Assembly: GCA_035544635.1 (NCBI GenBank)
Contig: DATKDQ010000222.1
Span: 1 to 52,388, forward strand
Reading direction: 5' to 3'
Source: Thermoanaerobaculia bacterium
GTDB taxonomy: Bacteria > Acidobacteriota > Thermoanaerobaculia > Multivoradales > Multivoraceae
DNA length: 52,388 nucleotides
Below are positions 36,913 through 51,399 of the stretch, in pieces (positions within the stretch are counted from its first letter, which is position 1; each line of letters starts with the position of its first letter). Made by a program: the position numbers and the translations under genes. Below the pieces are notes generated by a model. It saw only the letters and a program-made list of their open reading frames with translations. It had not been told where the DNA came from and did not search any database.

Positions 36913-38523
36913 CTACTCTCCGGCGGCGAGTTGCCCGGTGAGGGGCTCCGGCCGGCTTGCCCACCCCTCGCGCTCGCGGGCGATGGCGTACTCCATGGCG
37001 TCGGCGAGCGCGGTCCAGCTCGCCTCGATGATGTTGGTCGACGCGCCGACAGTGGTCCACTGGCGCGCGCCCTTCTGGAAGTCGATCAGCACCCGGGTGG
37101 TGGCGGCGGTGCCCTCCTGGGAGTCGAGGATGCGCACCTTGTAGTCGGAGAGGTGGACGTCCTGGATCTCGGGATGGGTGTCGGCGAGCGCCTTGCGCAG
37201 CGCGAGCGACAGCGCGTTCACCGGCCCGTTGCCCTCGGCCGCGGTGTGCACCAGCCTGCCCTCGACCTCGACCTTCACCGTGGCCTCGGAGAAGAGGCCG
37301 CGGCCCTCCCGGTGCTCCACCACGACCATGAAGTCGACCAGTTGGAACGGCGCGCGGTACTCGGCGTGGGTGCGCCGCAGCATCATCTCGACCGAGGCCT
37401 CGGCGCCCTCGAAGGTGTAGCCCTTGCTCTCGAGGTCCTTGACCCGCTCCAGCACCTCGCGCGCCCGTGAGGCGTCGGTGGCGAGCGCTTGCCGCTCCGC
37501 GAGGTGGAGGATGTTACCGCGGCCCGAGAGCTCGGAGACTACGGTGCGCATCTCGTTGCCGACCAGCGCTGGCTCGACGTGCTGGTAGCTCTCCGGGCAC
37601 TTGAGCATCGCCGCGACGTGGATGCCGCCCTTATGGGCGAACGCGCTGCGCCCCACGTACGGCGAGTAGTCGTCGTGCGGTATGTTTGCGACCTCGGCGA
37701 CGTAGCGCGACAGCTCGGTGAGCTCGCGCAGCCGCTCGGGAGGCACGCAGCGCCGTCCCATCTTGAGCTGGAGATCGGGAACGATGGTGGTGAGGTTGGC
37801 GTTCGAGACGCGCTCGCCGTAGCCGTTGACCGTACCTTGGACCATGACGGCGCCGGCGCGCACCGCGACCAGCGAGTTGGCCACGCCGCAGCCGCCGTCG
37901 TCGTGGGTATGGATGCCGACGGGTGCCGCGGCCGAGCGGCAGACCGAGGCCGTGATCGCTTCGACCTCCCACGGCAGCGTGCCGCCGTTGGTGTCGCACA
38001 GCACCAGAAAGTCGGCGCCCCCGCGGGCCGCCGCCTCGAGGGTCGCTATCGCGTAGCCCGGATTGGCCTTCCACCCGTCGAAGAAGTGCTCGGCGTCGTA
38101 CACCACCTCCCGGCCGGCGCGCTTCACGTAGCGGACGCTGTCCTCGACCATCGCCAGGTTCTCGGCGAGTGTGGTCTCGATCACCTGCTCGACGTGCAGG
38201 TCCCAGCTCTTGCCGACCAGCGTGACGACCGGAGTGCGCGCCTCGAGCAGCGCCTGAATATTGGCGTCCCGGTCGCAGTGGGTCTGCTTGTAGCGTGTGC
38301 TGCCGAAGGCGCAGATCCTCGCCTGCCGGAGTGGAATCTCGCGGACGCGGGCGAAGAACTCGGCATCCTTGGGGTTCGAGCCCGGCCAGCCGCCCTCGAT
38401 GTAGGGGATGCCGAAGGAGTCGAGCCGCTGCGCGATCTTGATCTTGTCGCCGAGCGAGAGCGAGAGGTTCTCGCGCTGGGTGCCGTCGCGCAGCGTGGTG
38501 TCGTAGAGGAAGACCTGGCTCAT
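36913..38523 (-). CDS. cimA: (R)-citramalate synthase (LeuA-family, CimA type)
   Basis: ATG 38523 gives MSQVFLYDTTLRDGTQRENLSLSLGDKIKIAQRLDSFGIPYIEGGWPGSNPKD. 536 aa with a C-terminal regulatory domain. The track ORF extension to 39912 was rejected. Confidence 0.85.
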   Translation of the reverse strand: MSQVFLYDTTLRDGTQRENLSLSLGDKIKIAQRLDSFGIPYIEGGWPGSNPKDAEFFARVREIPLRQARICAFGSTRYKQTHCDRDANIQALLEARTPVVTLVGKSWDLHVEQVIETTLAENLAMVEDSVRYVKRAGREVVYDAEHFFDGWKANPGYAIATLEAAARGGADFLVLCDTNGGTLPWEVEAITASVCRSAAAPVGIHTHDDGGCGVANSLVAVRAGAVMVQGTVNGYGERVSNANLTTIVPDLQLKMGRRCVPPERLRELTELSRYVAEVANIPHDDYSPYVGRSAFAHKGGIHVAAMLKCPESYQHVEPALVGNEMRTVVSELSGRGNILHLAERQALATDASRAREVLERVKDLESKGYTFEGAEASVEMMLRRTHAEYRAPFQLVDFMVVVEHREGRGLFSEATVKVEVEGRLVHTAAEGNGPVNALSLALRKALADTHPEIQDVHLSDYKVRILDSQEGTAATTRVLIDFQKGARQWTTVGASTNIIEASWTALADAMEYAIAREREGWASRPEPLTGQLAAGE

Positions 38524-38537
38524 GATCGAAATGCTCC

Positions 38538-41480
38538 CTACTCGATCTGCTGCAGCAGCTCGAGCAGCTCCTCGGGCGAGAAGATCTTGCCGAGGCGCGG
38601 ATGGTCGGCCTGCACCACGTCCCCGAGCAGCTGGCGCTTGCGCTCGATCATCGCCGCGATCCGCTCCTCGAGCGTGTTCTCGGCCAGGAGCTTGAACACC
38701 TGCACCGCACGGCGCTGCCCGATGCGGTAGACGCGATCGGTCGCCTGATCCTCCTTGGCGGCGTTCCACCAGCGGTCGTAGTGGATGACGACCGAGCCGC
38801 CGACCAGGTCGATGCCGGTGCCGCCGGCGCGCAGGCTGCCGAGAAACACCCGGCAGGCGGGGTCCTCGTTGAAGCGGTCCACCACCTCCCCGCGCTTGCG
38901 GGTGGAGCCGGTGAGTGTGGCGTACTCGACGCTGAGCCCGCGCAGGTACTCCTGCATGATGCGGATCATCCCGAGGTACTGAGTGAAGACCACCACCTTC
39001 TGGCCGCTGCCGAGGCTCTCGTCGAGGAGCTCCTTGAACAGGTCCCACTTGCGCGAGTCGTGCCGCTCCCACTCGCCGAGCGTCCCCAGCGCGAGCGCCG
39101 GGTGGTCGCAGATCTGCTTCAGGAGGTTCAGCACCGCGAAAATATGGATGTACGGCAGCGGCTCGACCTTGGCGCGGATGCGGTCGGCCAGCGCGGCACC
39201 GCGCGTCGCGATGGTCTGCCGATAGAGCTCGCGCTGCTCGTCCGACAGCGTGCAGGTGCGGGTATCCTCGATCTTCTCCGGCAGCTCGTCGAGCACGCTC
39301 TCCTTGAGGCGCCGCAGCACGAACGGGGCGACCAGCCGGCGCAGCGAGCGCAGGCCCTCCTCGTCGGCGCCGTCGCGGGTGCCGGCGCCGAAGCGATCGA
39401 AGTATGTCTCGTCGTCGCCGAGATAGCCGGGGAGGATGAGATCGAACAGGTTCTTGAGCTCGTCGAGCGAGTTCTCGATCGGCGTCCCGGTCAGGCCGAT
39501 CTTCATCTTGGCGTCGAGGGCGATCGCCGCCTGGTGCGCCTGGGTCTCGCGGTTCTTGATCCACTGCACCTCGTCGAAGACGACCAGCTCCCACGGCACC
39601 TTGCGGAGCTTCTTGGCGTCGTTGCGCAGCACGCCGTACGAGGCGATCAGGAGGCTGCCCGCCTCGAGCGCCCGGTCGAGGTCGCGCTGGGCGCCGTGGT
39701 AGATCACCGCCCGCAGATCGGGCGCATGGTCGCGCAGCTTGTTGCGCCAGTGGCTGATCACGGTGCGCGGGCAGATGACGAGGAACGGCTTCTTCACCTG
39801 GCAGTGCTCGCGCAGCAAAAGCATGAGCGCCATCGCCTGGTGAGTCTTGCCCAGCCCCATGTCGTCGCAGAGCAGCCCGGCGAGCTGGTTCTCCCAGAGG
39901 AAGTGCAGCCACTCGACGCCGATCCTCTGGTACGGGCGTAGCTCGCTCTTCATCCCCGCCAGCGGCGCCAACGGCAGCGATGGGCGCAGCTCGAGCAGCC
40001 GCTCGACGATCGCCGCCCGGGCGCCGGTTCCAGAGATCCGTACCGGCTTCGAGGTCGACGACTTGAGTCGGAGGATCTGCGCCGAGGAGAGCTGCACCTT
40101 GCCACCCACCCGTCTGGGCTTGGCGCTGCGGCGGCTCCCAGTGAGCGGCGCGATGCCGGCGAGAGCGGGCGCGGTGAGATCGATCCAGCCCCGCTCACTC
40201 TCGAGATAGGGCAGACCCTGCCCCTTTGCCTCCAGCAGCTTCTCGAGCGGGATGGTCTCGTCACCGAAGCCGTAGCGCACCGCCATGGTGTCGGACTCGC
40301 CGGCGGCGATCTCGAGGAAGTCGAACTCCCGGAAGATCCGGAGCTCCCTCATCGCGTCCTCGAGCACGAGCTTCGGCTTGGCGCCGGCGGCGTCGCCGCG
40401 CTCCAGGAATCCGGCGATGCGGTTGGCCTTGAGCCGGCGCTTTCCGATCGCGCCCCGGTCCTCGGCCCCTTCGATCTCGGCCAGCACCTCGACCTCGGGC
40501 AGGTAGAGGAGCCCGCCGTAGCGGAATTTCGCGAGCTCCGCCTCCGCGGCCCTCGTCGACTCGTCGGGGTCGACGAGCACCTGGAGCTTCGCCACCAGCG
40601 TTCGCTTCTCGCGGTCGCCGGCGAGGAGCCTCAGGAGCGGCAGCAGGGGCAGCGGCTCGGGTGCGGTGCGGCCGCTCGCCTGCGACTCCTCGAGCAGGAA
40701 CGCGAGCAGGCTCCGCACCCTGGTCCGCGGCACCGAGACCCGGGCCACCGGCTGCGCGGGGCCGCGCAGGAAGGTGGCTGTGAACTCGCCGGTTTGGAGG
40801 TCGATCGCCGGTTCGAAATGACCACGGTCCTCGTACTCGCGCGAGCCGTGATAGGCGAGCCGATACCACAGGCTCTCCTCGAAGGACTGGCGATTGGTGC
40901 GCAGGCCGGCGCGGTTGAGGTGCTGCTCCTCGGCGGTGCGCAGGAACATGGAGAGCTTCTCGATCAGCCCGCTGCGGTCCTGGAAGCCGTTGTCGGGCGG
41001 CAGCTTGCCGATGCGCTCGAGGAACCGCAGCGTCGCCGGCGAGTGCTCGAGGAGCTCGACCAATGTGCGCCCCTCGGGCGAGGTGAGCCGGACGGCAAGG
41101 CGATCGCCGCGGCGCACCTGCAGGATGCGCGTGTCCTTGAAGGGCTGCGGGTCGCCCTCTTGGAGGAGCTGCGCCAAGCGGTGCCAGCGGGTGGCGGCGA
41201 ACACCTCGCCCCACGACCGGTTGTGGTAGCGCTTGCGGAACTCGCCGATCTCGCGGCCCAGCTCCTCCAGGTGGCGGCACGTCCGCCTGCGGCCGACGCT
41301 GCACCCACAGAAGCGCAGCGGCCGCGTCGAACCGACGGCGTTCTCGAGGTACATCGCCGAGCCAGGGTCGGGATCGCGCGGCTCCTGCAGGAGCGCGATG
41401 CCCGAGCGATGGAACTCGAGGTTGGAGAACCGGCTCATCGTCAGCGCGAATCGGTTCGCCGCGCAGGGGAGGCGAACCAC
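38538..41480 (-). CDS. SNF2-family helicase with N-terminal SWIM zinc finger
   Basis: The SWIM CxC..CxH motif is FCGCSVGRRRTCRHL. The SNF2 N-terminal part has LRPYQRIGVEWL, DDMGLGKT and VFDEVQWIKN. Helicase C has GGTGIDL and DRVYRIGQ. The start is GTG 41480 or ATG 41438. Confidence 0.88.
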   Translation of the reverse strand: MVRLPCAANRFALTMSRFSNLEFHRSGIALLQEPRDPDPGSAMYLENAVGSTRPLRFCGCSVGRRRTCRHLEELGREIGEFRKRYHNRSWGEVFAATRWHRLAQLLQEGDPQPFKDTRILQVRRGDRLAVRLTSPEGRTLVELLEHSPATLRFLERIGKLPPDNGFQDRSGLIEKLSMFLRTAEEQHLNRAGLRTNRQSFEESLWYRLAYHGSREYEDRGHFEPAIDLQTGEFTATFLRGPAQPVARVSVPRTRVRSLLAFLLEESQASGRTAPEPLPLLPLLRLLAGDREKRTLVAKLQVLVDPDESTRAAEAELAKFRYGGLLYLPEVEVLAEIEGAEDRGAIGKRRLKANRIAGFLERGDAAGAKPKLVLEDAMRELRIFREFDFLEIAAGESDTMAVRYGFGDETIPLEKLLEAKGQGLPYLESERGWIDLTAPALAGIAPLTGSRRSAKPRRVGGKVQLSSAQILRLKSSTSKPVRISGTGARAAIVERLLELRPSLPLAPLAGMKSELRPYQRIGVEWLHFLWENQLAGLLCDDMGLGKTHQAMALMLLLREHCQVKKPFLVICPRTVISHWRNKLRDHAPDLRAVIYHGAQRDLDRALEAGSLLIASYGVLRNDAKKLRKVPWELVVFDEVQWIKNRETQAHQAAIALDAKMKIGLTGTPIENSLDELKNLFDLILPGYLGDDETYFDRFGAGTRDGADEEGLRSLRRLVAPFVLRRLKESVLDELPEKIEDTRTCTLSDEQRELYRQTIATRGAALADRIRAKVEPLPYIHIFAVLNLLKQICDHPALALGTLGEWERHDSRKWDLFKELLDESLGSGQKVVVFTQYLGMIRIMQEYLRGLSVEYATLTGSTRKRGEVVDRFNEDPACRVFLGSLRAGGTGIDLVGGSVVIHYDRWWNAAKEDQATDRVYRIGQRRAVQVFKLLAENTLEERIAAMIERKRQLLGDVVQADHPRLGKIFSPEELLELLQQIE

Positions 41481-41553
41481 CGACTCTAGCAGGCTGCACC
41501 GGGCGCGGAGAAGACATGTCTCCGGAGGAAACGGCGCAGGATCGATCGCCGAC

Positions 41554-41582
41554 TTGACACCGCTCGATCACTCCCGTAAAGT
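41554..41582 (+). promoter_or_regulatory. Candidate sigma-70 promoter of the ilv-leu leader
   Basis: TTGACA at 41554-41559, a 17-nt spacer, then TAAAGT at 41577-41582. This is the best consensus match seen in the window. Confidence 0.55.
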
Positions 41583-41592
41583 CACCCGCCAC

Positions 41593-41784
41593 ATGCGCCG
41601 TGCTGGGGTATCCTTCTCGATGTCCACCGTCCGGGGGACCGGGTCCATCACCCAGGGGACCGGGCACGCTCCGGCGGTGGGGGCTGCGCCCGCGTTGGAC
41701 CACTCGCTCCTCGTCGGGGTCGGCTCGCTGGGGTTGCTCCTGGTCGTCCTCGCCCTTATCGTCCCCCTTCTGGGGGCGACGTAG
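41593..41784 (+). CDS. Candidate ilv-leu leader peptide (alternatively a small membrane protein)
   Basis: The ORF ends ...SLLVGVGSLGLLLVVLALIVPLLGAT*. Possible starts are ATG 41593 (2-3 nt from the predicted TSS), ATG 41620, GTG 41677 and TTG 41695. A terminator follows, then ilvE. Confidence 0.4.
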   Translation: MRRAGVSFSMSTVRGTGSITQGTGHAPAVGAAPALDHSLLVGVGSLGLLLVVLALIVPLLGAT

Positions 41785-41812
41785 CGCGACCTGCAACATA
41801 GACGCGATACGG

Positions 41813-41843
41813 AGCCCCCAGCAGTGCTGGGGGCTTCGTTTTA
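41813..41843 (+). terminator. Intrinsic terminator (attenuator) upstream of ilvE
   Basis: AGCCCCCAGC-agt-GCTGGGGGCT is a perfect 10-bp stem followed by TCGTTTTA. It lies 54 nt upstream of the ilvE ATG. Confidence 0.75.
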
Positions 41844-41896
41844 TGGGGCGATCGAGAACCATCCACCACCGCATCGGAGACGCGTAGGAGGGCCGT

Positions 41897-42850
41897 ATGC
41901 CAATCGACAAGTCGGAGTGGATCTGGATGAGCGGACGCTGGGTGAAGTGGGCGGAGGCCACCGTCCACGTCACCGCCCACGCTCTTCACTACGGATCCAG
42001 CGCGTTCGAGGGCATTCGCGCCTACGAAGGCGAGGACGGTCCGGGCATCTTCCGGCTCGACCGCCATCTCGAGCGCCTGCTCGACTCCTGCAAGCTGCTG
42101 CGCTTCGAGATGGCGGACTACGGGCTCGACACGCTGACGCGGGCCACCGTCGAGCTGGTCGCGCGCAACCGACACAAGTCCTGCTACATCCGTCCGATCG
42201 CGTTCCGCGGCTCGGAGTCGATGGGCGTCTATCCGCTCACCTGCCCGGTCGAGGTGGCGATCTTCAGCTTCCCGTGGGGCGCCTACCTCGGTCCCGAGGC
42301 GATCGAGCACGGGGTCGACGCGGCGGTCAGCTCGTGGCGCCGCTTCGCGCCGTCGACCACCGCCCCGCTCGGCAAGATCGGCGGCCAGTACGTCCCCAAT
42401 CAGTTCGTCGCGGTCGAGGCGCGGCAGAATGGCTTCGCCGAAGGCATCATGCTCGACTCGTTCGGTTACGTGAGCGAGGGCGGCGGCGAGAACCTGTTTC
42501 TGGTCAGACGCGGCGAGATCATCACCACACCGCTCTCGTCCTCGATCCTCGAGGGGGTGACCCGCGACAGCGTCGTGACGCTGGCGCGGGATCTCGGCTA
42601 CACCGTGCTGTTCGAGAGTGTGACGCGCGAGATGCTCTACCTCTGCGACGAGCTGTTCATGACCGGCACCGCCGCCGAGATCACGCCGGTGCGCTCGGTC
42701 GATCGCATTCCGATCGGCAGCGGCAAGCGCGGGCCGATCACCGCGCGCCTGCAGCAGGAGTTCTTCGGGATCGTGTCGGGGCGAGTTCCCGACCGGCACG
42801 GCTGGCTGACCAGAGTGCCGCAGCTCGCGCCGGTGGGCGCCGAGCGCTGA
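41897..42850 (+). CDS. ilvE: Branched-chain amino acid aminotransferase
   Basis: 317 aa. HALHYGSSAFEGIRAY, and the class IV aminotransferase pattern EGGGENLF...LEGVTR. AGGAGG at 41886-41891. Confidence 0.92.
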   Translation: MPIDKSEWIWMSGRWVKWAEATVHVTAHALHYGSSAFEGIRAYEGEDGPGIFRLDRHLERLLDSCKLLRFEMADYGLDTLTRATVELVARNRHKSCYIRPIAFRGSESMGVYPLTCPVEVAIFSFPWGAYLGPEAIEHGVDAAVSSWRRFAPSTTAPLGKIGGQYVPNQFVAVEARQNGFAEGIMLDSFGYVSEGGGENLFLVRRGEIITTPLSSSILEGVTRDSVVTLARDLGYTVLFESVTREMLYLCDELFMTGTAAEITPVRSVDRIPIGSGKRGPITARLQQEFFGIVSGRVPDRHGWLTRVPQLAPVGAER

Positions 42851-42880
42851 ATCGAGCGAACGACGATGGAGGGGCGGGGC

Positions 42881-44587
42881 ATGAGACTCACCGGAGCCGA
42901 GATCATCTGGGAATCACTGATGCACGAAGGATGCGACCTCGTGTTCGGGTATCCGGGCGGCGCCATCCTCCCCACCTACGACGCGCTCTCCAAGTATCCG
43001 CAGGTCCATCACGTGCTCACCCGGCACGAGCAGGGGGCCACCCACATGGCCGACGGCTATGCGCGGGCCACCGGTCGAGTGGGCGTGGTGATGGCGACCA
43101 GCGGGCCGGGTGCCACCAACCTGGTGACCGGCATCGCCACCGCGATCATGGACTCCTCCCCGATCGTCGCGATCACCGGCCAGGTCCCAAGCTCGGCGAT
43201 CGGCACCGACGCATTCCAGGAAACCGACGTCACCGGCATCACGCTCCCGATCACCAAGCACAACTACCTGGTGGCCGACGTTCGCGATTTGGCGGCCACG
43301 CTGCGCGAGGCGTTCCACGTCGCGCGAACCGGCAGGCCGGGTCCGGTTCTGGTCGACGTACCGAAGGACATCCAGATCGCCACCACCGAGTTCGAGTACC
43401 CCACCGAGCCGATCCGGCTGCGCGGCTATCGGCCGCTCGGCGCGGCGTCCCCCGAGCAGGTCGCTGCCGCCGCCAAGCTGCTGCGCACCGCCCGCCGTCC
43501 GCTCATCCTCGCCGGACACGGCGTCTTGATGTCGGGGGCCGTGCGCGAGCTGCGCGAGTTCGCCGAGTCGGCCCAGATCCCGATCGCGCTCACGCTCCTC
43601 GGCAAGGGCGCGATCTCCGAGCATCACCCGCTCTGCCTCGGCATGATGGGGATGCACGGCGAGGCCTACACCAACAACGCGATCCAGGAGGCCGACCTGC
43701 TACTCGCGTTCGGCATGCGCTTCGACGACCGCGTAACCGGCAACCTGGCGACCTACGCCAAGAAGTCGCGGAAGATCCACGTCGACATCGACCCCTCCGA
43801 GATCAACAAGAACGTCAAGGTCGACGTCGGGATCGCCGGCGACCTGCGCGCGGTGCTCCAGCAGCTCCTTCCCGTGGCGCGGCGCGAAGCCGACCCGGCA
43901 TGGATGGCGCGCATCCAGGAGTGGAAGAAGGAGACCACGGCACGCGACGTCATCCACGAGCAGGCCGGGGACAAGCTCCTCGCCGCCCACGTCATCCGCG
44001 ACCTGTGGCGCTTCACCGGCGGTGACGCCATCACCGTCACCGATGTCGGACAGCACCAGATGTGGGAGGCGCAGTACTACCCGCACGAGCGGCCGCATAC
44101 CCTGATCACCTCGGGCGGGCTCGGCACCATGGGCTTCGGGCTGCCGGCAGCGATCGGCGCCAAGATGGGCAGGCCCGGCGAGGAGGTGTGGGCGATCGTC
44201 GGCGATGGCGGCTTCCAGATGACCATGGCGGAGCTCGCGACCTGCGTGCAGGAACGAGTCGAGCTCAAGGTCGCGATCATCAACAACGGCTACCTGGGCA
44301 TGGTCCGTCAGTGGCAGGAGTTCTTCTACGAGGAGCGCTACAACGCATCACCGATGGTGAATCCGGACTTCTGCAAGATCGCCGACGCCTACGGCATCCC
44401 GGCGGTGCGCGTCACCCGACGCGAGGAGGTCGAGGACGCCGTCGCGCGCGCGCGCGCCCACGAGGGCGGCCCCATCGTGCTCGAGTTTGTGGTCGAGAAG
44501 CACGACGTCGTCTACCCGATGGTGCCCTCCGGGGCGACTCTCAACGCGATGATCCGCCGGCCAGCGGCGACGCCGGAGATGGTGTGA
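42881..44587 (+). CDS. ilvB: Acetolactate synthase large subunit
   Basis: [31 protein letters not shown], plus the ThDP motif [16 protein letters not shown]...GDGGFQM. ATG 42881 has GGAGGGG 7 nt upstream. An alternative ATG lies at 42866. Confidence 0.93.
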
Positions 44588-45180
44588 TCGAGACGGCGAT
44601 GGAGATCCCGACCGGGAGCGGACACCCAGTGCGTACCAGCAAGCATGTCCTGACGGCGCTGGTCGAGAACCGCCCCGGCGTCCTGTCGCGGGTGGCCAAT
44701 CTCTTCCGCCGGCGCAACTTCAACATCGACAGCCTCACCGTGGGCAGGACCCACCGCGACGACCTGTCTCGCATGACGTTGGTGATGGACGGCTCTCAGG
44801 AAGAAGTCGAGCGGCTGGAGAAGAACCTCTACAAGCTGATCAACGTGATCCACGTCGAGCACATGACCGACCGGCCGTCGCTCTATCGCGACCTCGCTCT
44901 GATCAAGGTGGCGGTCTCGGGCGAGACCCGCCGCGAGGTGCACCAGCTCGCCGAGATCTTCCGCGCCCGCATCGTCGACGTCTCTCCGGAGTCGATGATC
45001 ATCGAGCTGACCGGGGAGGAGTCGAAGATCGAGAACTTCACCGACCTGCTGCGGCCGTTCGGCATCGTCGAGATGGTGCGCACCGGCGTGGTCGCGATGG
45101 GTCGAGGAGAGCACACGCTGGAGCACGACTCCTACCAGCCTCGCGCCGGCGTCCTGGGCAGTCGGAAGTCGGTGCTCTGA
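44584..45180 (+). CDS. ilvN: Acetolactate synthase small (regulatory) subunit
   Basis: GTG 44584 overlaps the ilvB stop (GTGA), with GGAG 6 nt upstream. The ACT domain is [34 protein letters not shown]. Confidence 0.9.
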
Positions 45181-45245
45181 AGGGTTCAGACCGGCGAGCC
45201 GCGCGATCCGGCCGGACCGCCACCACACAGGAGAAGGACGCGACG

Positions 45246-46259
45246 ATGCCCAAGCTCTACTACGACGCCGACGCCGATCTCGACCTCCTCGACGGCCGCA
45301 CCGTCGCGATCATCGGCTACGGCAGTCAGGGCCACGCTCACGCGCTCAACCTCCGGGACAGCGGGATCGATGTGGTGGTCGGCCTGCCCGAGACCAGCCG
45401 CAGCCGCGCCAAGGCGGAGGCCGCGGGCCTGCGCGTCCTGGACGTGGCCGACGCGGCGCGAGCGGCGCGGATCGTCATGATCCTCACGCCCGACACCGTG
45501 CAGCGCGAGATCTACGAGCAGTCGATCAAGGCGCATCTCGCCACCGGCGACACGTTGATGTTCGCCCACGGGTTCAACGTCCGCTTCGGGCAGATCCAGC
45601 CGCCGCCGGGGGTCGACGTCAGCCTGGTGGCGCCCAAGGCACCGGGCCATCGCGTACGCGAGGTGTTCACCGAGGGCGCCGGCACTCCGGGCCTGGTGGC
45701 GATCGCCCAGGACGCGAGCGGCCACGCGCTCGAGGACGCGCTCGCCTACGCCAAGGGCATCGGCTGCACCCGTGCCGGCGTCATCGCCACCACCTTCGCG
45801 GAGGAGACCGAGACCGACCTGTTCGGCGAGCAGGTCGTCCTGTGCGGCGGCGTGTCCGCGCTGGTGCGCGGCGCCTTCGAGACCCTGGTCGAGGCCGGCT
45901 ACCAGCCGGAGGTGGCGTACTTCGAGTGCCTGCACGAGCTCAAGCTGATCGTCGACCTCATCTACGAGGGCGGCCTCTCCTACATGTGGTACTCGGTTTC
46001 GGACACCGCGGAGCACGGCGGCTACGACGCCGGCGACAAGGTGGTGACGCCGGAGACGCGCCAGGTCATGAAGCAGATTCTCGCCGACATCCAGAGCGGC
46101 GAGTACGCGCGGCGCTGGGTCGAGGAGAACCAGAAGGGCCGTCCCTGGTTCGCCGAGCGCCGCCGCCAGGAGCGCTCCCACCCGGTCGAAGGGGTGGGCA
46201 GGCAGCTCCGCGCCATGATGCCCTTCCTCGACGCCAAGGAGGTCGCCGAGGGCGGTTGA
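45246..46259 (+). CDS. ilvC: Ketol-acid reductoisomerase (class I)
   Basis: [40 protein letters not shown], 337 aa. Confidence 0.96.
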
Positions 46260-46268
46260 GGAACGTCG

Positions 46269-46302
46269 GCGCCGCGGACGGCGCGGTGCGTCCTGCGGAC
46301 GC
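46269..46302 (+). repeat. Hairpin-B element copy plus an adjacent hairpin (ilvC-leuA spacer)
   Basis: GCGCCG-cgga-CGGCGC at 46269-46284, then GCGTCC-tgc-GGACGC at 46288-46302. Confidence 0.65.
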
Positions 46303-46402
46303 GCTCCCGGCTCCGTCGGCGGAGCTGGATTCGGAACGTAGGGCCGAACTTGTGTCGGCCGAGGTGCAGCGCAGGAGCCGAGAGCAGACAGGAGAACGAG
46401 CC

Positions 46403-48013
46403 ATGACGCAGCCGCAACAGGACGAAGTCGTACGCATCTTCGACACCACACTGCGCGATGGCGAGCAGTCGCCGGGCGCGACGCTCACCAGCGTCGAGAA
46501 GCTCGAGATCGCACGGCAGCTCGCGAGCCTCGGCGTCGACGTGATGGAGGCCGGCTTTCCGGCGGCGAGCCCCGACGACCTCCACGCCGTCAGGCGGATC
46601 GCCGAAGAGGTGGGGACTCCCGACGGGCCGATCATCTGCGGGCTCGCGCGCGCCAACCGGGGCGACATCGAGAAGGCCTGGGAGGCGGTGCGAGAGGCGG
46701 CGAAGCCGCGCATCCACACCTTCATCGCCTGCTCCGACCTGCACATGGAGCGCAAGCTCGAGATGACGCGCGAGCAGGTGGTGGCCCAGGTGCGCGACAT
46801 GGTCGAGCTCGCGCGCGGGCTCTGCGCCGACGTCGAGTTCTCGCCCGAGGACGGGAGCCGCTCCGACGTCGACTTCCTGCTCGAGGTGCTCGGGGTCGCG
46901 ATCGAGGCCGGCGCCACCACCATCAACGTGCCGGACACCGTAGGCTACGCCACGCCCGAGGAGTACGCGGCGCTCTTTCGCCGGCTCATCGCCGAGACGC
47001 CGGGCGGCGATCGCGTGATCTGGTCGGTGCACTGCCACGACGACCTCGGCCTCGCCACCGCCAACACCATCGCCGGCCTCGCCGCCGGCGCGCGCCAGGC
47101 CGAGGTCACCATCAACGGCATCGGGGAGCGCGCCGGCAACACCAGCCTCGAGGAGGTGGTGATGGCGCTCCACACCCGGCGTCCGGTGTATGGCCTGCGC
47201 ACCTCGATCGACACCACCCAGCTCGCCCGCACCAGCCGGATGGTGAGCAACTACACCGGGATCGCGGTGCCGCCGAACAAGGCGATCGTGGGGGCGAACG
47301 CCTTCGCGCACGAGGCCGGCATCCACCAGGACGGCATGCTCAAGGACCACCGCACCTACGAGATCATGACGCCGGAGACCGTCGGCCTCTCGCACTCGAA
47401 GCTGGTGCTCGGCAAGCACAGCGGTCGCCACGCGTTCCGCATCCGCCTGGAGGAGCTCGGGCATCACCTCTCCCCCGCCGAGCTCTACCCCGCGTTCCAG
47501 CGCTTCAAGTCGCTGGCGGAGAAGAAGAAGGTCGTGACCGACGCGGACCTCAACGCGCTGGTGACGTCCGAGGTGAAGCCGGAGGCGATCTACGCCCTGG
47601 TCGATCTCCAGGTCGCCTGCGGGCGTAGCGGTCTGTCGACCGCCACCGTGCGCCTGCGCGGCCCGGGCGGTGTGGAGAAGGTCCAGCCCGCGGTGGGCAC
47701 CGGCCCGGTCGACGCCACTTTCCGCGCCATCGACGACATCGTCGAGGCGCCCAACACGCTGGTCGAGTACAGCGTGCACAGCGTCACCGAGGGCATCGAC
47801 GCGCTGGGCGAGGTGACGGTGCGCGTCAAGTCGGGCTCCGGAGACGCCCGCACCTACGGCGGCTATGGAGCCGACACCGACGTCATCATGGCGAGCGCGC
47901 AGGCCTACGTGGCGGCGCTGAACCGCATGCTCGAAGCCCAGGGACGCGGCTCCCGCGGCAAGGAGATCGGCCCGGCTACCGTCCGCACGGCTGGCTCCGG
48001 ACATGCTGGATAG
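46403..48013 (+). CDS. leuA: 2-isopropylmalate synthase
   Basis: ATG 46403, with GGAG upstream. [17 protein letters not shown] and [15 protein letters not shown]-terminal LeuA dimer/regulatory domain is present. 536 aa. Confidence 0.94.
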
Positions 48014-48142
48014 CATGTCCTACGCCAGCCATGTCTTCGGTGCCGCGGACGGCGGTGGCTCCGGACATGCTGGATAGCATGTCCTCCGCCAGCCATGCCC
48101 TTGGCGCCGCGGACGGCGCGGGACATGCTGGATAGCATGTCC
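47999..48142 (+). repeat. Tandem composite hairpin array (leuA-leuC spacer)
   Basis: The 22-nt palindrome GGACATGCTGGATAGCATGTCC occurs three times, at 47999-48020, 48063-48084 and 48121-48142. The copies are separated by two related spacers that each contain hairpin B (48040-48055 and 48104-48119). Copy 1 contains the leuA stop TAG at 48011-48013. Confidence 0.9.
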
Positions 48143-48163
48143 TCCGCTTGGGAGGCATCGACG

Positions 48164-49621
48164 ATGGACGCAGCGCGGCCTAGAACTCTCTTCGACAAGG
48201 TCTGGGACAGCCACGTCGTCCCCGGGACCGGGGGCGAGGGTCTGGGTGATGGGGGTTCGGGGCGGGAGGGCCTGCCAGCCGTCCTCTACGTCGACCTCCA
48301 TCTGGTGCACGAAGTCACCTCACCGCAGGCGTTCGCCGAGCTGCGCCGCCGGGGGCTGCGGGTGCGGCGCCCGTCCCAGACGCTCGCCACCATGGATCAC
48401 TCGACGCCGACCGATCCCTCGATCGGTGCCGCGCGCTTGCGGATGATCGATCCGCAGGGGGCGGCGCAGCTCGAGCAGCTCGAGCGCAACTGCCGTGAGC
48501 ACGGCATCACGCTGTTCGCGATGGACAGCCCGGAGCGCGGCATCGTGCACGTGATCGGTCCCGAGCAGGGCCTCACGCAGCCGGGGATGACGGTCGTCTG
48601 CGGTGACAGCCACACCTCGACCCACGGCGCCTTCGGCGCGCTCGCGTTCGGCATCGGCACCAGCGAGGTGGCCCACGTGCTCGCCACGCAGTGCCTGCTC
48701 CAGCACCGGCCCAAGACGTTCGAGATCCGTGTCGACGGGGCGCTCGGTCCGGCGGTCACCGCCAAGGACCTCATCCTTTACGTGATCTCCACGCTCGGCG
48801 TCGACGGTGGGACCGGGCACGTTTTCGAGTACCGCGGCTCGGCGATCCGCGGGCTCGACATGGACGGCCGCATGACGATCTGCAACATGTCGATCGAGGG
48901 CGGCGCGCGCGCGGGCATGATCGCGCCCGACGAGACCACGTTCGCGTATCTCCGAGGGCGACCGAGGGCACCGCGGGGCGAAGCGTGGGAGCGGGCTCTC
49001 GATGCCTGGCGGCGTCTGCCGACCGACGACGGCGCGCCGTTCGACCGCACGGTCACGATCGACGCTGCGCAGATCCAGCCGATGGTCACGTTCGGCACCA
49101 ACCCAGGTATGGGAATCCCGGTGCGCGGAACGGTTCCGGGGGAGGAGGGGGTGCCCGAAGGCCAGCGCCGCACATTCGCCGAGGCGCTCGCCTACATGGA
49201 TCTCGATCCGGGGCGGCCGCTCCTCGGCCACAAGATCGACGTCGTGTTCGTGGGGAGCTGCACCAACTCGCGGATCTCCGACCTGCGCGCGGCGGCTTCG
49301 GTGCTGCGCGGCCGGCGGGTGGCGAGCGGGGTGCGCATGCTGGTCGTCCCGGGCTCGCACCAGGTGAAGCGGCTGGCGGAGGAGGAGCACCTGGACGAGG
49401 TGTTCCGCGCCGCCGGAGCGGAGTGGCGCGAGGCCGGCTGCTCGATGTGCCTGGCGATGAACGGGGACCAGCTCGAGCCCGGCCAGTACGCGGTGTCGAC
49501 CTCGAACCGCAACTTCGAGGGGCGCCAGGGCCCGGGTGGGCGCACGTTCCTGGCCAGCCCGTTGACCGCAGCGGCTTCGGCGGTGCGGGGCGAGATCACC
49601 GACGTGCGGGAGATGCTGTGA
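48164..49621 (+). CDS. leuC: 3-isopropylmalate dehydratase large subunit
   Basis: ATG 48164, with GGGAGG at 48150-48155. [11 protein letters not shown]...[13 protein letters not shown], and the Fe-S Cys context VGSCTNSR / GCSMCL. The track start at 48095 reads through the repeat array and was rejected. Confidence 0.93.
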
Positions 49622-50235
49622 TGGACAGCCCCCGCTTCACCACACTGGCGAGCCGCGTCGCGCCGCTCCCGATCGACAACGTCGACACCGACCGGATCAT
49701 CCCGGCGCGCTACCTCAAGGTCACTGACAAGAACGGGCTGGGCGAGGGGCTCTTCGCGGACTGGCGGCGGGGCGCCGACGGCAGTCCCGACCCCGACTTC
49801 GCGCTCAACCGTCCCGAGCTCCGCGGCGCGCGCATCCTCCTGGCCGGAGACAACTTCGGCTGCGGCAGCTCGCGCGAGCACGCCGCCTGGGCGCTGCTCG
49901 GCGCCGGCTTCCAGGCGGTGCTGTCGACTCGGTTCGCCGACATCTTCCGCAACAATTCGCTGAAGAACGGCCTCCTGGTGGTCGAGATCCCGGTCGGGAC
50001 CTGGCGTGAGATCCTCGCTCTAGTCGAGCGCGACCCCGCGATCGAGATCGAGATCGACCTGTCGGCGCAGCGCGTCTTACTGCCAGACGGAGTGGACGTG
50101 TCGTTCACGATCGACCCGTTCTCCAAGCACTGCCTGCTCAACGGCGTCGACCAGCTCGGGTTCCTGCTCGAGCAGCTCCCGGCGGTCGAGCGCTTCGAGG
50201 CGGTGCGTCCCGCGCGAATCGACTCGCGTGCGTAG
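49621..50235 (+). CDS. leuD: 3-isopropylmalate dehydratase small subunit
   Basis: ATG 49621 overlaps the last base of the leuC stop. IDNVDTDRIIPARYLK...NFGCGSSREHA. Confidence 0.94.
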   Translation: MDSPRFTTLASRVAPLPIDNVDTDRIIPARYLKVTDKNGLGEGLFADWRRGADGSPDPDFALNRPELRGARILLAGDNFGCGSSREHAAWALLGAGFQAVLSTRFADIFRNNSLKNGLLVVEIPVGTWREILALVERDPAIEIEIDLSAQRVLLPDGVDVSFTIDPFSKHCLLNGVDQLGFLLEQLPAVERFEAVRPARIDSRA

Positions 50236-51319
50236 GCGCATCGTCCTGCTGCCGGGAGACGGCGTCGGCCCCGAGGTGATCGCCGAGGGTCGGCGCGTGC
50301 TCGAGGCGGTCGCCTCGAGCCGCGGCTTCGGGCTCGACTTCGTGGAGGCAGCCGTAGGTGGGAACGCGATCGATCTCGAGGGCGTCGCGCTGCCGCCCTC
50401 GACGCTCGCCGAGTGCGAGCGCGCCAGCGCTCTCTTCCTGGGCGCCGTCGGCGGGCCAAAGTGGTCCGATCCGACGGCTCCGGTGCGCCCCGAGGACGGG
50501 CTCTTGGCGCTGCGCAAGCGGTTCGAGCTGTTCGCGAACCTGCGCCCCATCCCGGTCTATCGCAGCCTCGTTCACCTCGCGCCGATGCGGGCCGAGCTGC
50601 TCGCCGGCGTCGACCTCCTGTTCGTGCGCGAGCTCACCGGCGACGTCTACTTCGGCCCACGTCAGGAGCAGGGCAGCGGATCGAGCGCGTACGACACCAT
50701 GGTCTATAGCGTGCCCGAGGTGGAGCGCATCGCGCGCGTCGCGTTCGAAGCTGCGCGCGGGCGGCGGCGCAAGCTGACCTCGGTCGACAAGGCGAACGTG
50801 CTCGCCTCGATGCGGCTGTGGCGGCGGACCGTGGAGCGGGTGGCGCGCGACTACCCCGACGTCGAGCTCGAGCACGCACTGGTCGACTCCTGCGCCATGC
50901 ACCTGGTGCGCCGGCCCGCCTCGTTCGACGTCATCCTCGCCGGCAACATGTTCGGGGACATCCTCTCCGACGAGGCCTCGGTCCTGTCGGGATCGCTCGG
51001 CATGCTGCCCTCCGCCTCGCTCGGCTCCGGCCGCTTCGGCCTCTACGAGCCCGTGCACGGCTCGGCGCCCGACATCGCGGGACGCGGCATCGCCAACCCG
51101 ATTGGCGCGGTGCTGTCGGCGGCCATGCTCCTCCGCTTCAGCCTGGGCCGCGCGGACGACGCGGCGGCGGTCGAACGCTCGGTCGAGCGCGCGCTGGACG
51201 GCGGCGCGGTGACCGCCGATCTGGTCGCCTCGGGCGCCAAGCACCTCTCCACGCGTGCCATGGGCGACGCGATCCTGGATCGCCTGAGCGAGGAGCTCGC
51301 AGCCAAGGCCGCCGTGTAG
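50228..51319 (+). CDS. leuB: 3-isopropylmalate dehydrogenase
   Basis: The GTG start gives RRIVLLPGDGVGPEV, followed by NLRP... and DKANVL...NMFGDILSDEAS. 363 aa. Confidence 0.95.
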   Translation: MRRRIVLLPGDGVGPEVIAEGRRVLEAVASSRGFGLDFVEAAVGGNAIDLEGVALPPSTLAECERASALFLGAVGGPKWSDPTAPVRPEDGLLALRKRFELFANLRPIPVYRSLVHLAPMRAELLAGVDLLFVRELTGDVYFGPRQEQGSGSSAYDTMVYSVPEVERIARVAFEAARGRRRKLTSVDKANVLASMRLWRRTVERVARDYPDVELEHALVDSCAMHLVRRPASFDVILAGNMFGDILSDEASVLSGSLGMLPSASLGSGRFGLYEPVHGSAPDIAGRGIANPIGAVLSAAMLLRFSLGRADDAAAVERSVERALDGGAVTADLVASGAKHLSTRAMGDAILDRLSEELAAKAAV

Positions 51320-51322
51320 CGG

Positions 51323-51356
51323 CCGGGCTCGTTTCAGTCGCGACCGGGCTCGTTTC
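51323..51356 (+). repeat. 13-nt direct repeat downstream of leuB
   Basis: CCGGGCTCGTTTC occurs at 51323-51335 and at 51344-51356. A 7-bp hairpin overlaps the second copy at 51351-51370 (CGTTTCC-ggcact-GGAAGCG). Confidence 0.6.
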
Positions 51357-51399
51357 CGGCACTGGAAGCGACGCGCCGGACGCCGCACTCACCGCTCGC

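Follow-up and report, generated by a model that had tools for sequence, protein, structure and literature searches.

A candidate ribosome-mediated leader-peptide attenuator upstream of the ilv-leu operon in an uncultured Thermoanaerobaculia bacterium

Introduction

How might an uncultured acidobacterium adjust transcription of its genes for branched-chain amino acid (BCAA) synthesis to the supply of the amino acids themselves? This question is raised by a contig of 52,388 nucleotides (nt) from the metagenome-assembled genome of a soil-type Thermoanaerobaculia (Acidobacteriota) bacterium, referred to below as the window. In it a short open reading frame (ORF), rich in leucine, valine and isoleucine codons near its end, and a GC-rich hairpin with a T-rich tail precede ilvE, the first gene of an ilv-leu operon. 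The closest relatives of the window's IlvE protein are also from Thermoanaerobaculia. An initial annotation, made from the letters of the DNA, had read this region as a ribosome-mediated attenuator. That reading is supported by the layout found in relatives, by covariation, by constrained folds and by a leucine-type sister leader. We estimate the probability at about 0.8 that a leader-peptide attenuator of this kind ties expression of the eight-gene operon to how much charged Leu, Val and Ile tRNA is available.

Results

Elements of the leader region

The hairpin of the initial annotation, a perfect 10-bp GC stem at 41813-41835 followed by a T-rich tail, is exact (AGCCCCCAGC/GCTGGGGGCT) and further extends to 15-nt arms (41809-41823/41825-41839) that are 93% complementary, with a ΔG of -27.8 kcal/mol. 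It lies 54 nt upstream of the ilvE ATG, and on the plus strand of the 52-kb window it alone satisfies a search for perfect GC-rich hairpins of at least 8 bp with a T-rich tail. A simple terminator scan made no call at 41809-41844, in our reading because the extended stem enters the T run and too few Ts are left for the tail. The near-consensus promoter that had been described, TTGACA and TAAAGT separated by 17 nt, is present at 41554-41582. It is the sole sigma-70-like site in the 2.5 kb from 40500 to 43000, where 0.1 would be expected. A predicted intrinsic terminator stands between the leader ORF and ilvE, and the scan of the same interval found no promoter-like site between this terminator and ilvE.

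Read from ATG 41593 to the TAG at 41782-41784, the ORF translates to 63 amino acids (aa), MRRAGVSFSMSTVRGTGSITQGTGHAPAVGAAPALDHSLLVGVGSLGLLLVVLALIVPLLGAT, and its C-terminal end reads SLLVGVGSLGLLLVVLALIVPLLGAT. The earlier count of Leu, Val or Ile at 16 of the last 26 codons is exact, and it is significant against a background of 22.5% in six window genes (binomial p = 2e-5). The coordinates of all features are collected in Table 1.

Table 1. Features of the leader and its operon in the window, and of the asparagine-type leaders at other loci
Feature	Position	Strand	Remarks
Sigma-70-type promoter	41554..41582	+	TTGACA 41554-41559, 17-nt spacer, TAAAGT 41577-41582
Leader ORF	41593..41784	+	63 codons + TAG; likely start ATG 41593, no Shine-Dalgarno
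In-frame 21-nt tandem duplication	41622..41663	+	repeat D1; STVRGTG/SITQGTG, GTCCACCGTCCGGGGGACCGG / GTCCATCACCCAGGGGACCGG
Regulatory codon run	41704..41781	+	last 26 codons, 16 of them Leu, Val or Ile
CTT-ATC (Leu-Ile), codons -9/-8	41755..41760	+	fold geometry: last stall position leaving region 2 free
Region 1	41760..41767	+	CGTCCCCC; pairs with region 2; lineage-specific
Antiterminator, 5′ strand	41767..41788	+	repeat I1; region 2 (CTGGGGGC, 41770-41777), last codons, TAG 41782-41784, CGCG
Antiterminator, 3′ strand	41803..41824	+	overlaps terminator 5′ arm (GCCCCCAG, 41814-41821)
Intrinsic terminator (predicted)	41809..41844	+	repeat I4; 15-bp stem, 1-3 nt loop, UUUUAU
Controlled operon (Shine-Dalgarno to leuB end)	41886..51319	+	Pfam; leuA start checked separately
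Shine-Dalgarno of ilvE	41886-41891	+	AGGAGG
ilvE	41897-42850	+	Pfam
ilvB	42866-44587	+	Pfam
ilvN	to 45180	+	Pfam
ilvC	45246-46259	+	Pfam
leuA	46404-48013	+	Pfam
leuC	48095-49621	+	Pfam
leuD	to 50235	+	Pfam
leuB	50228-51319	+	Pfam
Asn-type leader	L064:107-266
Asn-type leader	L112:4607-4846	minus
Asn-type leader	L084:7939-8172
Further Asn-type leaders	L062, L101, L108, L119, L124, L125, L131, L133, L138, L140, L168, L170, L179

Conservation of the layout

Relatives were retrieved by their IlvE sequence, a procedure blind to the leader, with one genome scanned per species (61 loci). Five of these loci, L001-L005, have an IlvE 60-71% identical to that of the window and an intact upstream region; they belong to Thermoanaerobaculia, including Candidatus Multivoraceae. 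In each, a GCCCCCRG/CYGGGGGC terminator lies 66-109 nt upstream of ilvE; ahead of this terminator come a TTGACW promoter and then a short ORF that has 13-16 Leu, Val or Ile in its last 25 residues and ends G-[AV]-[TN]-TAG. A protein search and contig look-ups added L182 (95% IlvE identity), L183 (76%) and L188 (72%), in which a helicase gene, the leader, ilvE and ilvB follow one another. Thus all IlvE relatives that keep the operon layout (L001-L005, L182, L183 and L188) possess the promoter, the L/V/I-rich ORF, the spacer and the terminator, and no leader was found in more distant IlvE loci or beside the stand-alone ilvE relatives L184 and L185, which have another neighbourhood. Beyond these, L186 is a variant from Holophagales, the contig encoding P0005 has a 41-aa gene called 75 nt before ilvE, and P0122 encodes a further leader, in L189/L190.

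Sixteen related loci, mostly from the class Thermoanaerobaculia (Acidobacteriota), share this layout: a TTGACW promoter, an ORF (37-72 codons) whose N-terminus varies and whose tail is L/V/I-rich, and a GCCCCCRG/CYGGGGGC terminator before ilvE. In 15 of the 16 tabulated relatives TTGACW is followed at 17-19 nt by a TAnnnT-like -10 box. All members have GGGG five nt ahead of the stop codon and a spacer of 26-32 nt from the stop to GCCCCC. A covariance model (R1) gave the same realignment and detected no further members in the window, L001-L152 or L182-L188; L153-L181, L186 and the Asn-type leaders are not among its matches.

Long open frames are common at 65-70% GC, and the octamer CTGGGGGC occurs window-wide at chance level (4 copies on both strands, 3.35 expected), so that the locus might be taken for a chance open frame beside an ordinary hairpin, neither with a function. 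We regard this as hardly credible. The whole arrangement is conserved where IlvE is only 60-76% identical, its spacing is constant, its paired positions covary as described below, and the plus strand holds no second hairpin of the kind in 52 kb. As to the octamer, three of its four copies fall within 65 nt, at 41770-41834.

Antiterminator and constrained folds

The initial annotation had pointed out that an octamer of the terminator 3′ arm is duplicated in the last codons of the ORF, where it could pair with the terminator 5′ arm instead. The duplicate is present and is conserved as the GGGG five nt before the stop; the predicted antiterminator is, however, much larger than an octamer, with 22-nt arms that are 82% complementary and with the stop codon inside the stem. 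A fold of the segment that begins 16 nt ahead of the stop codon and runs through the terminator 5′ arm gave -31.1 kcal/mol (z = -5.4) for the window. The outer helix pairs CUGGGGGC with GCCCCCAG and the inner one CGCG with CGCG; between them CGUA pairs with UACG, and this middle helix takes in the stop codon's U and A. This topology, with the stop codon paired, is common to 13 of the 13 members folded, at z values from -1.6 to -5.9.

In an alignment of 16 sequences the antiterminator pairing is satisfied in 78.6% of cells, compared with 35-58% in slid registers, and none of 500 shuffles matched the observed pairing or covariation score. This alignment of relatives, a check that the initial annotation had suggested, also shows that the region 2 copy is conserved and co-varies with the terminator 5′ arm. 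One column pair between the two is U-A in 6 sequences and C-G in 5, and the pair adjoining the stop codon is G-C in 10, C-G in 2 and U-A in 1. In the terminator, a pair is A-U in 9 and G-C in 4 of 13 relatives. RNAalifold, applied to a MAFFT alignment, found no more of the antiterminator than its G-run/C-run helix, since members differ in the register of the internal loop.

The smaller hairpin that had been proposed upstream, between CCCCC (41763-41767) and GGGGG (41772-41776) and referred to as 1:2, is present in the window (-14.2 kcal/mol), but only the closest relatives share it. It appears in the constrained folds of the window, L073 and L075, and the CCCCC/GGGGG sequence is also found in L182 and L189; it was not seen in L001, L003, L080, L134 or L143. 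The family therefore does not uniformly follow a four-segment design.

For the constrained folds, nascent RNA was cut before the terminator 3′ arm and the positions occupied by a ribosome were masked. With the ribosomal A site placed between codons -16 and -8, most members pair the 5′ arm with region 2; once it has advanced to codon -7 or beyond, up to the stop codon, no antiterminator is formed. Folding with and without masking had been suggested at the outset, and in most members these folds do switch in the proposed manner. The geometry is in keeping with this, as region 2 lies 5-12 nt before the stop and a modelled ribosome at the stop covers the 5′ strand of the antiterminator. In some folds the G-runs at 41603-41608, 41678-41688 and 41728-41733 also pair with the terminator 5′ arm; we consider these pairings incidental since they are not conserved.

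Codon usage and the downstream pathway

The L/V/I-rich tail is conserved in kind in all members, and each of the fourteen ilvE-type tails contains Leu, Val and Ile. The codon CTT, which accounts for 1.5% of Leu codons in window genes, makes up 35 of about 125 (about 28%) in the family tails, and a CTT-ATY pair is located 8-11 codons ahead of the stop in 11 of the 16 tabulated sequences. The Gly codon of region 2 is GGG in 16 of 16, compared with 22% of Gly codons in window genes. The stop codon is TAG in all members but L183 (TAA) and L186 (TGA); TGA ends four of the five window genes checked.

A generic DNA pattern (GGGG-N5-TAG, then 22-40 nt and a terminator core) was matched at 120 metagenome loci, mostly ordinary gene ends. 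A BCAA gene lies within 1.5 kb downstream of 5 of the 11 L/V/I-rich matches and of 0 of the 109 others (p = 2.4e-6). One locus, L080:6958-8877, contains a sister leader, MMTRNGRTTARSLTMAETPGAHLGPLAVLALSLLLLLLLSTGAT. Its promoter, terminator and stop are arranged as in the family, but its run is near-pure Leu (tail LAVLALSLLLLLLLSTGAT), and it precedes leuA-leuC-leuD. In this leader and that of L143 taken together, Leu outnumbers Val plus Ile by 20 to 3, whereas the corresponding numbers in the fourteen ilvE-type tails are 91 and 86 (Fisher p = 0.0013).

These data bear on two other explanations. One is that the leader is indeed a translation-coupled attenuator, reporting general translation capacity or growth rate instead of L/V/I supply. 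The long, variable N-terminal part, with its many non-BCAA codons, would offer room for the ribosome to lag, and several members form the antiterminator whenever no ribosome reaches the stop. However, the tail is enriched specifically in L/V/I with all three residues in every ilvE-type leader, it switches to Leu only before leuACD, and the rare CTT is enriched; we therefore consider a general sensor unlikely. The other is that the ORF encodes a small single-pass membrane protein with its own terminator and that the ilvE operon is transcribed independently. The tail does resemble a transmembrane helix, its hydrophobic character is conserved, and gene callers annotate the ORF as a protein. Phe, Trp, Tyr and Met are common in membrane helices, and they constitute just 1% of the residues of the family tails. 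The N-terminus is conserved neither in length nor in sequence, the stop codon and the GGG codon keep a constant position with respect to the terminator, and no Pfam or NCBIfam model is matched. Furthermore, the ORF lacks a Shine-Dalgarno sequence, unlike ilvE and leuA, and an independent operon would lack an evident promoter, as none is seen between terminator and ilvE. The match of residue type to downstream pathway, almost pure Leu before leuACD, is in our view the strongest argument against a mere membrane peptide, and we judge this explanation to be slightly less probable still than that of a general sensor.

In L143 the place behind the terminator of the Leu-type leader, where leuA would be expected, is taken by a group II intron (250-2029; RF02001, RF01998; an ORF with RVT_1 and GIIM domains). 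The arrangement suggests that the intron has inserted itself behind an intrinsic terminator.

Start and annotation of the leader ORF

The ATG at 41593 is 10 nt downstream of the -10 box, and in most members of the family the first in-frame start codon is found 9-12 nt past this box, with no Shine-Dalgarno sequence; ilvE and leuA each have a clear one. An ATG-CGN (Met-Arg) sequence stands 10-12 nt after the -10 box in the window, L182, L073, L075 and L189, and in each it is in frame with the tail, the ORFs being 63, 70, 41, 41 and 41 codons long. The ATG kept at this distance and in frame in five close relatives backs the earlier suspicion of a leaderless ORF. Translation thus likely begins at the 5′-proximal ATG 41593 in a nearly leaderless fashion, because the frame is kept across differing ORF lengths while the N-terminus is otherwise unconserved. 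The alternative starts that had been listed, ATG 41620, GTG 41677 and TTG 41695, all share the leader frame when the sequence is read, and initiation at any of them would yield an identical regulatory tail. Between close relatives the N-terminal part differs in length and sequence with the reading frame preserved; the duplication in the window accounts for part of its extra length relative to the 41-codon relatives.

The free variation of the 5′ two thirds of the leader, in which only the frame is kept, is the opposite of what a conserved aptamer would show, and what is conserved is the codon run with the antiterminator/terminator pair. This is relevant to the idea that the leader is an RNA switch binding a ligand or tRNA (a riboswitch or T-box), or the target of a protein-dependent antiterminator, with an incidental ORF. 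A leader of about 250 nt with a terminator at its end would suit such a switch, and the Bacillus ilv-leu operon is under T-box control. Yet Rfam yielded nothing at gathering score in the whole window, and at E <= 10 the interval 41400-42000 gave chance hairpin matches only, so that even at this threshold there is no family match; the T-box model RF00230 does not match the window leader. An RNA switch is accordingly very improbable.

Such leaders were said in the initial annotation to be rarely annotated. This ORF is in the public record, with the start at ATG 41620, but as an unnamed 54-aa 'hypothetical protein VMS86_08885'. It has been called in several assemblies, at 39, 41, 53 and 54 aa, never with a name or a Pfam domain. 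An exact-sequence look-up found neither the window's IlvE nor the 63-aa ORF on record, and a homology search with the peptide gave no matches other than the 54-aa annotation of the window itself and a 41-aa relative. NCBIfam had no match to four leader peptides and Pfam produced sub-threshold noise only. No Rfam leader or cis-regulatory family was found in L080, L143, L112, L064 or L187, where only tRNA, SRP RNA and group II intron domains were recorded. Judged by sequence, the leader is a family outside the curated collections of Rfam, Pfam and NCBIfam, of a mechanistic class that is already known.

Genomic setting

The operon, described initially as having nine genes, has eight in the window by Pfam: ilvE, ilvB, ilvN, ilvC, leuA, leuC, leuD and leuB. 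Upstream of the leader, on the minus strand, there is a SNF2-family helicase gene (Pfam), and the order helicase-leader-ilvE is kept in L001, L183, L188 and L189. Directly downstream of the helicase gene, also on the minus strand, is a second LeuA/CimA-like gene (36913-38520), with HMGL-like, HCS_D2 and LeuA_dimer domains. It is oriented divergently from the ilv-leu operon, and that operon contains a leuA of its own.

Several repeats were observed. An inverted repeat, GATCGATCG/CGCTCGATC, surrounds the -35 box (41540-41569), and a perfect 9-nt inverted repeat, TCGATCGCC/GGCGATCGA at 41542-41550/41847-41855, encloses the leader from end to end; conservation of either repeat is lacking in L182, L073 and L075. 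Right behind the leuB stop codon, at 51322-51358, there are two copies of the direct repeat CGGGCTCGTTTC, and no canonical terminator is present there.

Related leaders in other settings

L152:1130-2632 (also L159 and L171) carries a homologous leader, LKPNREAATAVLPDLTLRTFDGVFLTILALLGLLLLTTTGVG, with a poor T tail, followed by a secreted metallophosphoesterase gene. Its TACAGT -10 box and GTG start are the same as those of L001, and it could be either a relic or an attenuator put to new use. In L187:410-810, from Anaerolineae, two successive L/V/I-rich short ORFs, each with a terminator-like hairpin, precede ilvD-ilvE-...-ilvN-ilvC; their sequences are unrelated to the window leader.

Among the 120 matches to the generic pattern, 16 have a tRNA gene within 400 nt downstream of the terminator, and in 16 of 16 this is tRNA-Asn(GUU), 23-116 nt behind the terminator. 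The associated ORF has 20-25 codons, 2-5 of them for Asn (e.g. MRTFAGLGANRNGNASLPNLGAGAA), and starts just after the -10 box. The ORF ends GGG-GCG-GCG-TAG and is followed by a spacer of about 30 nt and a GCGCCCCCGG/CCGGGGGCG terminator. The L112 contig belongs to Gemmatimonadales, judged by its DnaX neighbour. In the loci searched, these leaders matched neither the BCAA-leader covariance model nor Rfam, and no literature was found on Asn-codon leaders before tRNA-Asn. From its sequence, the Asn-type element is a possible case of a tRNA gene under leader-peptide attenuation.

Discussion

The sequence elements are observed, as are their conservation and partial covariation across 16 relatives, the energetics of the folds and the link between codon and pathway. 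From these we infer the following course of events. Transcription would start a few nt before ATG 41593, and a ribosome would initiate at the near-leaderless 5′ end and translate the 63-codon ORF behind RNA polymerase. If Leu-, Val- or Ile-tRNA were scarce, the ribosome would stall within codons -16 to -8, a stretch that ends at the rare CTT-ATC (41755-41760). The exposed segment 41767-41788 could then pair with 41803-41824 in an antiterminator of -31 kcal/mol, and polymerase would proceed into ilvE. If all three tRNAs were plentiful, the ribosome would reach the UAG at 41782, where its footprint would cover the entire 5′ strand of the antiterminator. The terminator 5′ arm would then be available to pair with 41825-41839, and transcription would presumably end near 41843.

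A number of observations weigh against this model. The minimum-energy fold of the full-length RNA always contains the terminator, and the decision to antiterminate must therefore be kinetic, as in classical systems. The 1:2 hairpin is not conserved, and L001, L003, L080, L134 and L143 form the antiterminator even when no ribosome is present, so that in several members the untranslated state may read through. In L005 and L144 the antiterminator pairing is weak in the constrained folds. Most paired columns are invariant G-C and covariation is confined to a few; the covariation is real but thin, because the core G-C pairs never vary. Third-position conservation in the tail, calculated for 16 codons, is 0.81-0.94 compared with 0.73-0.81 in ilvE and is thus not clearly the higher. 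The U tract is broken (UCGUUUUAU), the choice of start codon is ambiguous, with no Shine-Dalgarno sequence as a guide, and leaderless initiation in this lineage is itself deduced. Finally, the L152 leader precedes a metallophosphoesterase gene and not a BCAA gene.

It is possible that the three kinds of leader represent one undescribed modular attenuator design. Its ORF would be near-leaderless and would carry GGGG five nt ahead of a UAG embedded in the antiterminator; a spacer of about 30 nt would lead to a GCCCCC/GGGGGC terminator, and the design would be retargeted by its codon run: L/V/I for ilv-leu, Leu for leuACD and, in Gemmatimonadales, Asn for tRNA-Asn. We offer this joint proposal tentatively and give it somewhat less than an even chance. 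If it is true, the Asn case would be leader-peptide attenuation of a tRNA gene instead of enzymes, and the Asn-codon leader before tRNA-Asn is the less expected of the two observations. The ilv-leu leader, for its part, is a well-supported and testable attenuator candidate from uncultured Thermoanaerobaculia, members of a poorly studied phylum. The combination of TTGACW, a near-leaderless ORF, GGGG-N5-stop, a spacer of about 30 nt and a GCCCCCRG terminator provides a search signature for other genomes, and the name leader peptide would suit VMS86_08885, like comparable calls of 39-54 aa, better than the present one.

According to a survey from 2010, no leader peptides had been known until then outside Proteobacteria and Actinobacteria; the survey added Firmicutes and noted that no functions were assigned to the attenuators predicted in Acidobacteria (PMC2965389). 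Our search for literature on a leader peptide with an antiterminator in Acidobacteria returned nothing beyond this general survey, with coverage of subscription journals only partial and an earlier mention possible.

The leader of the E. coli and Salmonella ilvGMEDA operon, ilvL, encodes a multivalent peptide of 32 residues with mixed Leu, Val and Ile codons. The window leader resembles it in its mixed hydrophobic run, in having a terminator and a mutually exclusive antiterminator, and in preceding an operon that includes ilvE. It differs in the length of its peptide (63 aa, 37-72 in the family), with no sequence similarity. Here there is no Shine-Dalgarno sequence, the start probably lies beside the transcription start, the stop codon is within the antiterminator stem and the 1:2 protector hairpin is unconserved, and the operon extends to ilvBNC and the full set of leu genes.

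In Bacillus subtilis a T-box governs the ilv-leu operon by sensing uncharged tRNA directly through RNA-RNA contacts, without translation. The fused ilv-leu operon is similar, and the choice between terminator and antiterminator is likewise tied, in our model, to tRNA charging. The window leader, in contrast, has no T-box match, and its 5′ part is unconserved between close relatives.

The enterobacterial leuL contains four consecutive rare CUA Leu codons, and the Staphylococcus aureus ilv-leu operon has a leucine-rich attenuator peptide (PMC5794164 for the latter). Runs of Leu codons, with rare ones preferred, are a common feature, and the L080 and L143 leaders are the direct analogue, their LLLLLLL being encoded mostly by CTT and CTC. 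The window leader is multivalent and not specific for Leu, and there is no sequence relationship.

The remaining comparison is with IlvL of the Corynebacterium glutamicum ilvBNC operon (MTIIRLVVVTARRLP), as described in PMC11857589, citing Morbach et al. 2000. That peptide has 15 aa, its terminator is far downstream of its stop, and a three-hairpin model includes an anti-antiterminator that also blocks initiation; the organism belongs to Actinomycetota, and there is no sequence similarity. The two leaders are alike in their Ile, Val and Leu codons and in the antiterminator and terminator hairpins that lie upstream of acetohydroxyacid synthase genes. The C. glutamicum IlvL is likewise described as having no ribosome-binding site, with transcription starting one nucleotide from the start codon.

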